NCBI GenBank assembly: GCA_965612795.1
Contig: CBFDTI010000001.1
Location: 1-64,000 of the forward strand
DNA: 64,000 nt
Direction of reading: 5' to 3'
Source: an uncultured bacterium
GTDB lineage: Bacteria > Hydrothermota > UBA3073 > NMUJ01
Shown here in pieces: positions 9,001-18,000 of this stretch; position 1 is the stretch's first letter, and the number at the start of each line of letters is the position of its first letter. The position numbers are program-made.

Positions 9001-12000
9001 CTCTGTTCCACCTATGTCCCCAACCACGACCGAACCGTACAGGTCAAATCCTTCCTCCTCATCGGTATGACCCTATCCGTATGGCTCCTCTCTTTCGGGT
9101 TCGGTTATACCACACGTTGGCTCAGCCTGTTACTGCTCGGCTTCACAATCCTATTCCTCAACTACAACCGTCAGCTTACCGTCACCCACCGTCGTACCAC
9201 CGTACCTATTGCATTCCCCGAGTTCTCACTCCCACGCACTTTATTATTTTTCTTCCTCGGGCTCGGCGCCCTACTCACCGGTAGCGACCTACTCGTACGT
9301 AACGGTGTCACCCTCGCACACACTCTTGGCATATCCGAGCTCGCCATCGGTATCTCACTCGTCGCCATCGGCACATCACTACCCGAGCTCGCCACCGCCA
9401 TCGCCTCCATCATCAAGCATCACCCCGAACTCTCCGTCGGCAACCTCTTAGGTGCTGACGTACTCAACCTCGGTCTCATCATCGGTGTCTGTGGCCTCGT
9501 CTCCCCCTTACCACTCTCCTACATCACACGCGTATTATCCTTACCTCTGCTGTTGATACTAACGCTTATCGTCTTCTCACCCCGCGGTAACATACGTCTA
9601 CGTGGCATTTCACTATTATGCATTTACATAGCATATCTCATACTACACCTATGGTATGGCTAATCCTTCTACCACTTATTTCACCTTCTGATACCGTCAC
9701 CATACTCATACCCCCCGGCACCACCATCTACACAATCTCACAAACCTTACATGATTCCGGCATCATCCAAAGCCCCTGGCTTTTCCGCATATGGGCACGC
9801 CTCACCGCCACCGATCGTCACCTCCAATCCGGCCTTTACCGTTTCCCTCGCCCCTATACCATTGAAGCCACACTACACAAACTACGTACAGGTAAGGGTG
9901 AGCTCATCAAACTCACCATCCCCGAAGGCCTCACCTTACATGAAATTGCCACACTTGTCGAATCCCATCTTTACGTACCACGTGACAGCTTCCTCCACTA
10001 TGCACACGATACCTCCTTCTTACACAGCTTAGGCATACCCGCCACCACCGCCGAAGGTTACCTATTCCCCACCACCTATTTCCTACCACCCTTCATCTCC
10101 GCCCGCCACGTACTAAAGGAGATGATACATCAGTTCTACCAACACATCACCCCCGACATGCTAAACCGTGCCTCACAGCTCGGCTTCTCCCTACACGAAA
10201 TCGTCACCCTCGCCTCCATCATCGAAAAAGAAGCCGTCCTCAAATCCGAGCTACCACTCATCTCATCCGTCTTCCACAACCGGCTCTCCCGTGGCATGAA
10301 ACTCGAAGCCAACCCCACCGTCGAGTATGCATTAGGTCATAAAAAGCGCTGGCTCACCAACAAAGATTTACAAACCCCTTCCCCCTATAATACCTATCTA
10401 TATCCCGGGTTACCACCCGGCCCCATCTGTAACCCCAGCCTCGACGCAATACTTGCTGCCTTATATCCCGCAGATACTGATTATCTTTACTTTGTCAGCC
10501 GTGGCGACGGCACCCATATCTTTTCCAAAACCTACACCGCACACAAGCGTGCCGTCCGCCGTCTACGTAAGTTCTGGCTCCGTTAGAACTTAAACTCCGT
10601 CCAGACCCTCACCCCCAATATCTGCGTATCCGTACCACGTGTCCTCTCCTTACTACGGCTGTAGTTTATGCTTGCACCCCCCACAATAACCGACGAAAAC
10701 CTATACGAACCCTCCAACCTCACACTTATACTATAGCTATCACGTGTCTTATGTCCCGTCGTGATATTCTTCCTCTCATCCACTGTACGACTAACTTTAA
10801 GGTTGAAGTTCACCGACCTCCCACCTTTCAACCACCCCAGTATCGGTGTCCCTCCCTGTGTTGTCACACTAAACGATGTACTGAAATTCACATTCTGTCG
10901 CCTATTACTCCATACGTTGCGGTTCCAATCCTCCTCTTTACTGCGGGTTTCACTTATACTGAAGCTTATCGGCATATTGGGTTTCTTAAGGTTAGCCCCA
11001 CTGATCTGCAAATTCCATTCCTCCTGCACACTCTGAATCGTATCCCCACGTTCACACCTCACCGTACGTGACTTCTTATAATTCAAAGATGGGCTCACCC
11101 CAGTTATAAGTTTAGCCATCCCCGGTATGTACCTCTCTACCCCCGTAATCCTAACCATCGCATCCGGGAACCTCACCACCTCCTGTACTGAAAAGTTACC
11201 CAACTTACCACCACTCGTCCTACTCTCCTGATAGTTGATGCTAACACTCAGAATATCTTTCAGGTTGAACCCCGACCCTACCTTCAGGTTGAACCCATCC
11301 TGCTTCATATCATCCGTATACGGTAACTTAGGTAGGTTCTCAAAATCCACCCTCCTACCGTATCGGAACTCACTCGGCGGCCGTTCCTTCAGGTAATAAA
11401 ACCTAAACGTCCTATTATTTGATACACTCACCTGCACCGGATTCACCCACCCAAGTAGTGGTAACTCCTTCGTCGGCAATGTAATATTAAACTCATTCCT
11501 TATGTCGAGCCCCACATTCCTCAAATCCATCGTATCACTTATGAGCTCCCTACCATGATATTCGTTATACCCCACACTGTAAGTCCATCTCGGTTGTAAC
11601 TTCCATACGCTCGGCGTAAGGTTTATCGAAACGTTCTCCCTCCAATTCGTCTGTGCCTCTATAACCATATCCTGTACCACCTCCAACCCATACCTCACCG
11701 ATATCATCTTCATCGGACTATACCCCACATTCGCCGAATATGTGATATTCCTCTGCCACGGTGTCCTCCTGCTCAACGTATAGGTTTCACCCATCCTCCT
11801 GTACCTCACCGCATGTTGTGCCCCATAACTTGCACCCAACCTTATACTCTGTGGCAACATCTGCCATTCCCATTTCCATATAGAAATAGGTTTGATAGAT
11901 GGCCTCACCTCATACGTCGCATTCAACGTCGCATTATACGATGAATCTATACTTTCATACGATTCGTTCCACCCCTGCCTGTAACTACCCGTAACATTCA

Positions 12001-15000: not shown

Positions 15001-18000
15001 TACCGTAAGCATCCCTAACCGTATCCACCAACACCCAGAAAAATCTTCCCCTCACAAAATCTATATCCCGTATTATCGCGCTATCACGTGCAGCCCTACC
15101 TTCGAAATGCTTCGTCTGCGTCTCACCCTGCTGTTTCGATGCTATTATTGTGAAATTCACCGGCCCCAGCATCCCATACGATTTGAGTCCAAACAACCCA
15201 CGATGGCTCACCCTCGCCCCTATGAGTGACACCCCCGGCAACGTCAACGCTACGTTACCCGCCTCTATCCCCTGTATTACATCATCCTCACCACCCTCAT
15301 ACTTCAACCTAATCGTATTTTTGATATCAAGTTCACGCTCCGAATCGTGGTCAATAAATGCATGTAAACGCTCACCAATCGTCCCCTGAAGTTTAACCCT
15401 CAACCGCTGTTTCATCATCAACTCAGGTAACCTCAACCTCGACTCACCTTCCTTGTACACACGGTTAGCCACAAACCGTTGCTGGCCACCCAGCTCTATC
15501 CTCTGTGACCCATTTATCTTTATGCTACCACCTTCACCTAATATGTTACTCATAGGACCTGGCAACGTTATCGGTATATGTATGGTAGGTATAAGTCCAG
15601 CCTCTTCTTCCTCCCTCCTCTGGGTGGCTTCACCTTCCTCCAATTGTATCGATTGCCACTTATCGTGAAATACTTTCAGATACAGGTTGTTCAGATACTC
15701 ATCGTACCCATGTGCCTCAAAATGTATGATATAATTGTTCGCATAAAACTTACTCAACACAAACAACCCATCGTACAAATAAACCTGCTCATTTATACTA
15801 TACGCACTTGCTAACCCTACCCACAACCCTATTATGTAGACACAAAGTTTTTTGCTGCTCACAAACCTTCTCCTTCGCTACCCCTCCTTTTAGAGAATAT
15901 ACCTATTACCTACGGGTGTCAATCCACCCCTTACAGATGTTTTCACTTTACTTTCCGCTCACATCGATATTTTATTTAAATGCGCAACCTATTACCGTTG
16001 GTGATTTTACTCATAATCTGTTGCAAACGCACTCCCATAGGTATAGACGAGATCTCCTCCCGCATGGGTGCTGTCCTATACGTAAAAACTCACCCTCAAG
16101 TGGATTCACTCATCCTCTCACATCGTAGCACCGGTTACGCATCCCACCTCTACGTAGGTACGTCGTACAATTTCGAATCCAAAACCCTACTTCGGTTCGG
16201 CTACCCCGACACCATTGCCGCTACTGCCGATTCTGCTTTCCTCTATCTGTACAACGTAGAAGGTGACACAATCCCCATCATCATCGCATACTTTCAAGAC
16301 ACCTGGTCAGAATCCGACACCCTACCCTGGAGTTTCCCCCATAGTTATGAACCCATAGACACATCTTATATCACCCCCGACACCACCAAACTCCCCTTAC
16401 GTATACCACTACAGACCAACATCCTACTATATGCACCCACCTCAGACACCGTTGTACGCTGGCCCTCACACGAAACTTCCATCTCTACCGAGGTCGCAAT
16501 CTATCATGCCGATAGTGTCACCCACTATGTAGTTCTCGAGGATACCTATCTCGACACTTTCTATACCACCGGATTCTTCATCCAATCCGGCACCTACCCC
16601 CAACGTCTATGTGTTTCGATAGATACAACTCTACCACCTGATGCCCAATTCCACAGAGCAACCCTCCACCTCTATATGGATTCCAGTCACAACTATCAAG
16701 GTATAGTAGCCAACTACAGTGGTGTCACCACATTTCCATCCGTACGTCACACCGATACACTTTTAATCGACCTACTACCCATCATGTCCAAACTCATCAC
16801 CGACACCTCCTACAGTTTTGTACTACAGGCACACGATGAAGGTAGCTACCTCTCACGCATCTGGTTACGTGACACCTTACTACTTGAACTCATATATTCG
16901 TTACCACCCACCGGCCCGGAGGTACCATGATCCGCATTCCACGTTTATCAATCCTCCTACCGCTATTATTACCTATCTGCCTTTACACCACTTCCTTCCA
17001 CAGCATTTACGGTGATTACGAATGGCTACCCTCTCCACCACCTTCTATCTCCTTAAGGCGTACCTTACATTCACACGTAGGGTTCGACATCACCCTGGTG
17101 ACTGCAAAACAATCCCGTTACTCCGCAAACGATATCTCCGCTCGCATGACCTCACTTAGCTTACTCTTACCCATCCGCTATTCGTTATCCCTCTGGGGTG
17201 ACCTCACCATGTTACAAGATGCCACCTACTACGCACTCAGTGAACCCCACGAAATAGCTGGCGAACCCTACCATTACGAGCTCACCGGTAGTGGGTCCAC
17301 CTATCGTGCCACACTTACACCTGTATTCCACTTATCTAAGCTCTCGTTCGGGTTAGGGCTCGTCCATTACTTTGGTAGGCTCGAAGAGCGCTGGTTACTG
17401 GATTTCGACAACCTCACCGATCGTGTCGATACCTTCTCCACGTATGTTTCATCCTGGTCACCTGTATTGCTACTAAACGAGTCATATACTCCACTAAACC
17501 TACGTACTCTTATCACCAACACCGAACTAATTCTATCCATAACCTTTCCACGGCTACCATTCGTTCCACGTATTCAGTTCAACTGGTATTCACCCTACTA
17601 CTCCATATCGGCCGGCTTTACCTCTCACAACTCTGCCATTGACCTCATTTACACCCATTACGGTACAGTAACCTCAACCACCCTAAAGCTTGCCCATCCT
17701 TTTGGCTTTAAGGAGTTCACCCTAACCCCTAACCTTTCCGTCGTGTATCGTACCAGCCCTAACATACAAGAGTGGGGTTGCATAATTTCAGTAACCTTCG
17801 ATGGCACCGAGCGTATCGATTAACCGTATCGCCGGCATCGACGTAGGTGGTACCTTCATCAAATCAGGCCTCATTTCCGGCAACCAAATCATCACCACCC
17901 GCCGTGACCCTACCCCATCCTCACCTGTAGAAATTATCGATACCCTAACATTTATAATACAGACGCTTTCACCCCAACTCGTAGGTATCGGCATGCCAGG

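Follow-up and report, generated by a model that had tools for sequence, protein, structure and literature searches.

The genome studied here appears to encode a type IX secretion system (T9SS) reduced to a core set: the translocon SprA, nine PorV/PorQ-type barrels serving as carriers or anchors, the sortase PorU, a PorZ-like protein, the regulator PorX and some 40-60 cargo proteins that carry a type-A C-terminal sorting domain (CTD). Missing from this set, as far as sequence comparison can tell, are GldL/GldM, the proton motor of the inner membrane, GldK/GldN, which form a ring or track, and the track-riding PorP/SprF family. PorK, PorL, PorM and PorN are regarded as belonging to the T9SS core. 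We nevertheless suggest, with moderate confidence, that the translocon, carriers and sortase work here without a GldLM/GldKN energy chain. The whole phylum, and most of the non-canonical SprA lineages sampled, retain a translocon, a sortase and carriers along with dozens of cargo proteins but show no recognisable energy chain, making two questions testable: whether SprA releases its cargo without GldLM or by means of another motor, and which came first, the core module or the energy chain.

Parts of the system lie in the window (the whole stretch of DNA analysed, 64,000 nucleotides):

10583 to 15862, minus strand: SprA/Sov, the T9SS outer-membrane translocon (1759 aa, GTG start, reading frame open)
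36511 to 38577, minus strand: 688-aa PorZ-like protein, a beta-propeller bearing a type-A CTD
2828 to 4567, minus strand: T9SS cargo protein with a C-terminal sorting domain (579 aa)

The translocon carries TIGR04189 at 411.1 bits (cut-off 200) in four stretches, and PF14349 agrees (74.9 bits, cut-off 27). At 1759 aa it falls some 600 aa short of the SprA proteins in a Bacteroidota-type sample, which measure 2300-2750 aa. One protein is 85% identical to it; none of its other close relatives exceeds 32% identity, so it is not a recent acquisition from Bacteroidia. Among 41 genomes of the same phylum, each at least 90% complete, SprA is matched in all and exceeds the cut-off in 34; 41 of 41 retain a homologue that is intact and 1760-2000 aa long, which argues that the system is under selection.

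The initial annotation had listed this SprA at 411 bits together with a PorU sortase, a PorX with its kinase, nine PorV/PorQ-family barrels and 58 proteins bearing a CTD of type A; all of these stand. PorU (C37:4615-8460) reaches 461.8 bits with NF033707 (cut-off 420) and 241 bits with Peptidase_C25; PorX (C44:1-1226, truncated by the contig end) reaches 346.7 bits with NF052313 (cut-off 300) and adjoins a histidine kinase with a HATPase_c domain. Nine ORFs exceed the cut-off of the PorV/PorQ model NF033709 (94.6-218.6 bits, cut-off 90), an assignment at subfamily level: none of the nine reaches the equivalog cut-offs of PorV (250; highest score 120.9), PorQ (220; highest score 102.6) or PorV2 (325). 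PF18962 finds 41 CTD matches in the genome at E<=1e-3, 25 of them above the cut-off, and a genome-trained CTD profile, whose E-values are circular because it was trained on the genome's own matches, retrieves 57-59 proteins, 50-52 of which carry the domain at their very C-terminal end, in agreement with the earlier count. The cargo protein of the window is among those retrieved; it also matches TIGR04183 (24.1 bits, cut-off 23, residues 503-576), with FlgD_ig (43.5 bits) and CHU_C (20.9 bits) at its C-terminus. The PorZ-like protein scores 75 bits with NF052228 (T9SS_PorZ), under the cut-off of 260, and 24 bits with TIGR04183 (cut-off 23, residues 609-684); Pfam adds Reg_prop and a weak PorZ_N_b_propeller match (21.4 bits), so that the protein is a candidate attachment-complex component or cargo. 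The best signals of the PorW/SprE model NF052312 (69 and 32 bits, cut-off 250) fall on the same 434-aa TPR ORF (C3:22857-24053) and may reflect generic TPR similarity; the model gives sub-cut-off matches in 12 of 14 control genomes. For PorP/SprF, the genome yields nothing with PF11751 except a 17-bit cross-match on a PorV-family barrel, a search run without a positive control; in the phylum sample this model exceeds its cut-off in 5 of 41 genomes.

Shared with the canonical Bacteroidota T9SS (the PorSS of Porphyromonas gingivalis and the Gld-Spr system of Flavobacterium johnsoniae) are SprA/Sov, PorU, barrels of the PorV/PorQ family, the response regulator PorX next to a kinase, and cargo bearing type-A CTDs. 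What the canonical system has in addition, and this genome lacks in detectable form, is GldL/PorL, GldM/PorM, GldK/PorK, GldN/PorN and PorP/SprF; the two also differ in that no barrel here attains PorV or PorQ equivalog level and that the PorZ and PorW candidates stay below their cut-offs.

The absence of the motor and ring was also claimed initially, and a search with wider profiles and working positive controls upholds it. HMMs for K, L, M and N were built from nine fetched gldKLMN operons (eight for N) and run with hmmsearch --max against every ORF of at least 50 aa (5,746 in all); the best E-values were 2.6 for K, 0.13 for L, 0.05 for M and 3.1 for N, and the weak GldL and GldM matches were rejected as LysM/coiled-coil proteins. 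TIGR03517, the GldM model, finds nothing in the genome at E<=10, and no FGE-domain match is present in it. HHalign comparison of 259 topology-selected ORFs (out of about 1,375 called genes, each entered as a single sequence) with GldL and GldM profiles, divergent Balneolales forms included, returned no convincing match for any of the 259: the best, at 46.7%, is a peptidase of the M23 family carrying a TM segment plus a coiled coil, and the second stands at 6.3%. The ESM Atlas holds no GldM look-alikes outside the GldM Pfam families.

The earlier work lacked a positive control, which has now been supplied by 41 genomes sampled from the phylum to which canonical Bacteroidota belong (the Bacteroidota-type sample). 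There, TIGR03517 exceeds its cut-off in 9 of 41 genomes, our GldK and GldL profiles recover the same nine plus one divergent genome (10 of 41). PF19841 matches GldN in 4 of 4 canonical genomes. The pipeline is therefore sensitive.

Across the phylum of the window, the picture is the same: SprA is matched in 41 of 41 genomes (34 above cut-off) and none of them has a credible K, L, M or N, in line with the earlier claim of the same absence in a phylum sample. Widened to take in the divergent L and M forms, the GldL and GldM profiles give no match in any of the 41 genomes below E=0.002 for GldL or below E=0.02 for GldM, and GldN (PF19841) exceeds its cut-off in 0 of 41. GldK-profile matches in 12 of the 41 were rejected as generic FGE-domain ORFs, with at most 81 bits against the 582-684 bits of true canonical GldK, and a wider survey found a GldK-like protein in 0 of 272 phylum genomes (best match 109 bits, FGE core only). 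These data bear on the idea that the absence is technical, owing to assembly gaps or contamination, or that the T9SS genes are relics with no secretion function. The assembly does comprise 128 contigs, and both PorX and the ExbB discussed below are truncated by contig ends. Yet it is 99.48% complete with 0.08% contamination, SprA sits on a 102-kb contig and, one protein aside, is distant from its relatives, and an absence shared by all 41 genomes, some of them assembled in 3-6 contigs, is not an assembly gap; the intact SprA throughout the sample and the 40-60 CTD proteins argue for function. We regard a technical or relic origin of the pattern as highly improbable.

A more serious objection is that a motor and ring exist in a form that the profiles do not recognise, either as strongly diverged GldLM/GldKN homologues or as non-homologous proteins coupling the proton gradient to SprA. 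Sequence profiles do have a real blind zone, since curated models miss two divergent genes of one Balneolales genome, those in the GldL and GldN positions. In this organism, Candidatus Cyclonatronum, which belongs to a lineage with an intermediate SprA (PF14349, 300.8 bits), one operon (locus L124) has the order L-M-?-K and scores 136 bits for K and 36.7 bits for L with our own profiles. With curated models, its GldM reaches 36-38 bits on TIGR03517 (cut-off 180) and its GldK 164.5 bits on TIGR03525; the GldL-like gene is not reported by NCBIfam models at E<=0.01, and the gene in the N position is missed by PF19841. A search of 1.84 billion representatives at E<=1e-3 brings up only eight relatives of the GldL-like protein. 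T9SS energy-chain genes can thus drift far from curated models, and a hidden motor would also suit what a structural study of F. johnsoniae describes (PMC10994853): motor energy is needed to detach the carrier-cargo complex from the translocon, and removal of the motor leaves substrate trapped there, so that release of the carrier-substrate complex needs energy. However, Cyclonatronum keeps a recognisable L-M-?-K operon, and nothing comparable occurs in this genome or its phylum. The FGE-sulfatase fold of GldK is easily detected: even the divergent Cyclonatronum protein retains 266 bits, against no FGE-domain match here and, in 272 genomes, a best match of 109 bits to a generic FGE core. Divergent L and M profiles and HHalign were negative as described; besides, no conserved uncharacterised gene accompanies SprA in 20 phylum genomes, and the genome holds no unexplained two-gene inner-membrane pair of GldL/GldM-like topology besides two small uncharacterised pairs. 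An unrecognised motor thus seems unlikely to us.

Could another known energy source take the place of GldLM? The only MotA/ExbB-type stator detected in the genome is ExbB-ExbD, with one PF01618 match above the cut-off (C56:1-455, cut short where the contig ends), plus a single ExbD (C64:6578-6940). Two proteins carry TonB_C, and nine Plug-domain receptors begin with a CarboxypepD_reg/SusC-like N-terminus, as in TonB/SusC-type uptake loci. Of the nine PorV/PorQ-family barrels, five follow a long, SusC-like TonB-dependent receptor encoded on the same strand, no more than two genes downstream of it, and the pairing recurs 11 times among 25 Plug-domain genes in five other genomes of the phylum; in the cassettes of this genome, the place of a SusD-type lipoprotein is taken by a protein that bears a CTD and belongs to an uncharacterised family, together with the barrel. 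TonB-ExbB-ExbD might then drive SprA directly, or by way of the TonB-dependent transporters encoded with the carriers. This appears rather improbable: the nine ordinary receptors already account for TonB-ExbBD, SprA has no demonstrated TonB box, the best PorV candidate (C4:11111-12163) lies outside the receptor cassettes, and a simpler reading of these is that they are loci for nutrient uptake to which the T9SS delivers the surface component.

If, as we favour, the core does operate with no energy chain, cargo exported by Sec would reach SprA from the periplasm and its CTD would be bound by a PorV-type carrier at the lateral opening. The carrier-cargo pair would then leave the pore without force derived from GldLM. 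Given that release is energy-dependent in F. johnsoniae, according to the study cited above (PMC10994853), a motor-less system must solve carrier release in another way. Direction could come from downstream CTD cleavage and surface attachment by PorU; alternatively, the CTD could be captured permanently by a dedicated PorQ-like barrel. More tentatively, and as a combined proposal that we hold to be less likely than not, the SprA-carrier-PorU core might be the older, self-sufficient T9SS across the FCB group and GldLM-GldKN a later add-on of Bacteroidia/Rhodothermia-type lineages. In this phylum the carriers might have expanded in number and become fixed in the cassettes of long receptor, CTD-bearing beta-sandwich protein and barrel, through which the T9SS would build SusCD-like surface uptake complexes with a "lid" on an uncleaved CTD, and TonB might be the only envelope-spanning energy source to touch the system. 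Such an add-on would contradict the recent proposal, made in PMC12635249, that the T9SS originated as a component of the gliding machinery.

The initial annotation had presented the motor-less state as a property of this phylum; the lack of a recognisable motor across the phylum stands, but it is not peculiar to it. The pattern is general: in the Bacteroidota-type sample, SprA occurs in 34 genomes and K/L/M in only 10, leaving 24 of 34 in which they go undetected, and among SprA-bearing Ignavibacteria/Kryptoniota-like genomes, 0 of 44 pass the GldL cut-off; these absences weigh less, as completeness is not reported for the genomes concerned. With the motor-less state found in the phylum and in most non-canonical SprA lineages sampled, the energy chain looks like a lineage-restricted addition or loss rather than a part of the core that every T9SS has. 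Tools that require gldKLMN return "no T9SS" outside Bacteroidetes (PMC4793230), meaning that such annotation would overlook an export route, probably functional, that serves hydrolases and surface proteins in many uncultured FCB lineages.

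The window carries a type IX secretion system (T9SS) translocon, a PorZ-like protein and a cargo protein with the type-A C-terminal sorting domain (CTD):

10583-15862, minus strand: SprA/Sov, open for 1759 codons, GTG start
36511-38577, minus strand: PorZ-like beta-propeller protein with a type-A CTD; NF052228 75 bits (cut-off 260), TIGR04183 24 bits (cut-off 23)
2828-4567, minus strand: CTD cargo protein

The SprA product reaches 411.1 bits on the T9SS translocon Sov/SprA equivalog model TIGR04189 (cut-off 200) and 74.9 bits on Pfam SprA_N (cut-off 27). Among 5.8 billion proteins it has a single relative of 85% identity; no other nearest relative exceeds 32%, and some of them bear names from Eisenbacteria, Ignavibacteriae and Bacteroidota. 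SprA is therefore no recent import from the well-studied Bacteroidia. Around it lie genes for YceG/MltG, a Na/Ca exchanger, two secreted proteins without annotation, a ROK kinase and Lon. Across 20 phylum genomes SprA stands among housekeeping genes (dxs, polyprenyl synthase, folD, a ComEA-like HHH protein, DNA polymerase III delta'), with no conserved T9SS or motor partner beside it. Divergent from SprA run two overlapping genes without family match, 15980-16930 (plus strand; 316 aa, lipoprotein-like N-terminus) and 16927-17823 (plus strand; a 298-aa secreted protein, weak BamG-family match of 19.9 bits), a pair not kept beside SprA in the 20 other phylum genomes. The start of the PorZ-like gene is overlapped by 4 bases, on the same strand, by a gene (38574-38966, minus strand) whose 130-aa product matches no family and is predicted to have two hydrophobic segments.

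Further T9SS components are encoded elsewhere in the genome:

C37:4615-8460: PorU, NF033707 461.8 (cut-off 420)
C44:1-1226: PorX, cut by the contig end and adjoining a histidine kinase, NF052313 346.7 (cut-off 300)
scattered: nine ORFs for PorV/PorQ-family barrels, NF033709 94.6-218.6 (cut-off 90)

All nine barrels stay below the PorV, PorQ and PorV2 equivalog cut-offs (best PorV score 120.9 against 250), the best PorW/SprE score is 69 bits where 250 is the cut-off, and PorP/SprF gives a cross-match only. Cargo is plentiful: Pfam Por_Secre_tail matches 41 proteins at E≤1e-3, 25 of them over its cut-off, and a CTD profile retrained on these matches of the genome itself, hence circular for E-values, retrieves 57-59 proteins, of which 50-52 carry the domain at the extreme C-terminus, in line with the 58 of the initial annotation.

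That annotation had described T9SS parts without GldK, GldL, GldM or GldN, the motor (L/M) and ring (K/N) proteins, and its main caveat, the lack of a positive control, is now settled. In a control sample of 41 genomes of Bacteroidota type, the GldM model TIGR03517 exceeds its cut-off in nine (261-608 bits); our own GldK profile gives full-length matches of 582-684 bits in these same nine, our GldL profile recovers them too, and PF19841 (GldN) matches all four canonical genomes tested. The profiles were built from nine gldK-gldL-gldM-gldN operons of the canonical-T9SS phylum, which was reached through SprA loci with an alignment of eight SprA sequences. In the genome under study, TIGR03517 finds no match even at E≤10, and our four HMMs, applied without any heuristic filter to its 5,746 ORFs of at least 50 aa, give best E-values of 2.6 (K), 0.13 (L), 0.05 (M) and 3.1 (N); the weak L and M matches fall on LysM/coiled-coil proteins of C28 and C18, not on GldL or GldM. 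Screening by topology for gene pairs resembling GldL/GldM returned mostly annotated enzymes (PFOR subunits, rotamases, an M23 peptidase, nitroreductase/PGM), which were rejected. Two small pairs stay without annotation: C14:17936-18803, and the 130-aa gene at 38574-38966 with the PorZ-like gene. A canonical GldM query to the ESM Atlas yielded no usable look-alikes outside the GldM Pfam families.

Could a motor be present and go unrecognised? The strongest argument comes from a control genome whose proteins are named Candidatus Cyclonatronum (Balneolales) and which scores only 36 bits on TIGR03517. At one locus (L124; G028:C186:3000-22000) it holds a divergent energy-chain operon, arranged L-M-?-K:

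9937-10662, minus strand: GldL-like gene, 241 aa
8788-9930, minus strand: GldM-like gene, 380 aa, without the first periplasmic domain in the alignment
7856-8785, minus strand: unrecognised gene in the N position, 309 aa
5830-7812, minus strand: GldK-like gene, 660 aa

No NCBIfam model reports this GldL at E≤0.01, nor does PF19841 recover the N-position gene, so drift can carry genes of the energy chain beyond the curated models. The L, M and K profiles were widened with these divergent sequences (A3, A4 and A5, respectively). In large-library searches the Cyclonatronum L and M sequences offer no bridge to other phyla, the GldL-like protein having only eight matches at E≤1e-3 among 1.84 billion representatives and the GldM-like protein only 21 relatives, all those with names coming from Cyclonatronum or Balneolales. 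HHalign over 110 of the 635 TM-bearing ORFs of our genome gave a best match of 3.5%; against the widened L and M profiles, all 259 topology-selected ORFs produced a single match of 46.7%, followed by 6.3% for the next best. The former is a membrane-anchored M23 peptidase aligned solely over its TM and coiled-coil part, and was discarded. We consider an unrecognised motor rather unlikely.

The same picture is obtained in 41 genomes of the phylum that are at least 90% complete:

SprA: matched in 41/41, over cut-off in 34/41; intact ORFs of about 1760-2000 aa
GldL (A3): four weak matches, the best with E 0.0024 and 17.6 bits, to ORFs whose size is wrong
GldM (A4): two weak matches, best E 0.024
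GldN (PF19841): over cut-off in 0/41
GldK (A5): in 12/41, generic FGE-sulfatase ORFs (about 310 aa) with no more than 81 bits; the genome under study has none

Across all 272 phylum genomes the best GldK profile match is 109 bits and covers the FGE core alone. The two largest FGE-domain ORFs (653-655 aa, in genomes G197 and G293) are not GldK; L/M-like neighbours are absent from both, and one starts like a protein kinase when its N-terminal sequence is read by eye. PorP/SprF, members of which are attached to GldK in Flavobacterium according to PMC12635249, passes its cut-off in 5/41 of these genomes, with a model that has no positive control here, and judging by sequence is likewise essentially missing from the phylum. 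An artefact, or a relic of a former system, seems most improbable: several phylum genomes consist of 3-6 contigs and show the absence too, so assembly gaps do not explain it.

With the controls matching and none of the 41 phylum genomes holding a credible K, L, M or N, the original observation is not only upheld but strengthened. On sequence grounds the absence of the ring is robust and that of the motor well supported, the latter bounded by profile sensitivity. We lean towards a genuine core T9SS that would operate without a motor. That secretion would run in this way is inferred from gene content and is at odds with the energy requirement demonstrated for the Flavobacterium T9SS (PMC10994853), a conflict that is precisely what makes the case interesting.

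A substitute could in principle supply the energy. There is one MotA/ExbB-family gene in the genome, truncated where its contig starts (C56:1-455, minus strand), and an ExbD gene with a downstream TonB at the end of another (C64:5969-6940, minus strand), and the two ends probably join into a single exbB-exbD-tonB operon split between contigs; a second TonB_C protein is encoded on C102, and there are nine Plug-domain receptors. Five of the nine PorV/PorQ-family barrels end a repeated cassette, in the order long SusC-like TonB-dependent receptor (880-1045 aa), secreted protein (612-1107 aa), barrel:

C2:9531-16352: cassette
C3:39292-46312, minus strand: cassette
C40:2264-7946: cassette
C41:3892-9338: cassette
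C4:1079-7525, minus strand: cassette with the barrel directly after the receptor and the 612-aa secreted protein two genes further downstream

The middle proteins are paralogues with a common conserved CTD-like C-terminus, from an uncharacterised family of 333 members at E≤1e-10, some of them named 'T9SS type A sorting domain-containing protein'. A structural model of one (pLDDT 83.4) predicts a beta-sandwich with FN3-like domains and has no clear functional match in the PDB; the best matches are limited to the N-terminal beta-sandwich (TM 0.30; GH116, cellobiose phosphorylase) and FN3 domains, and we therefore assign the protein no function. In five other phylum genomes, 25 Plug-domain genes include 11 further cases of this receptor-barrel pairing. 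On the simplest interpretation, the T9SS brings to the surface a component that is kept via its CTD on a dedicated PorQ-like barrel and serves the adjacent transporter; the cassette may be an analogue, built by the T9SS, of SusCD surface complexes. The cassettes place T9SS carriers beside the only envelope-spanning energy system detected, a link that is positional and no more; that TonB-ExbBD drives secretion strikes us as quite unlikely.

The initial annotation had placed the pattern at the level of WOR-3. The absence of motor and ring across that phylum holds, and the pattern extends further: in the control sample SprA_N is found in 34/41 genomes (7 are SprA-less), while K, L and M occur together only in the nine canonical genomes and Cyclonatronum, leaving 24 SprA-bearing genomes, of unreported completeness, with no detectable energy chain. 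In a second set, 44 genomes with SprA whose titles read Ignavibacteria, Kryptoniota or 'Bacteroidota MAG' (among them a complete and a chromosome-level one; completeness unreported), none passes the GldL cut-off, weak off-target matches appear in four, and five of the 44 also give no match to GldM.

Several reviews assign the T9SS to Bacteroidetes or, in looser terms, to the FCB superphylum (PMC5445135, PMC11205867, PMC8754138, PMC12398890), and TXSScan, which required the gld genes, detected the system in Bacteroidetes only (PMC4793230). BLAST has suggested its presence in Chlorobi, Fibrobacteres and Ignavibacteriae (PMC5837995), the CTD is known FCB-wide (PMC4737851, PMC3534657), and CTD cleavage is reported from the envelope proteome of Fibrobacter succinogenes (PMC6851124). 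Sequences from outside the phylum were removed in a preprint on the GldLM structure (10.1101/2022.01.28.478170), and in PMC8542988 the T9SS appears in the reference list only. In the literature searched we found no statement that T9SS lineages outside Bacteroidota lack motor and ring; the subscription literature may hold one.

The window also opens with CRISPR-associated genes (82-2549, minus strand; Cas_TM1802 405.6 bits, Cas6 127 bits) and has a very strong strand asymmetry, GC skew ranging from -0.14 to -0.62 in 4-kb windows over the whole of 1-64000. Skew is negative for genes of both strands (mean -0.05 on the plus strand, -0.27 on the minus strand), whose amino-acid compositions visibly differ, and its sign flips beyond the window, at about 75-80 kb of C1, suggesting an origin or terminus of replication.
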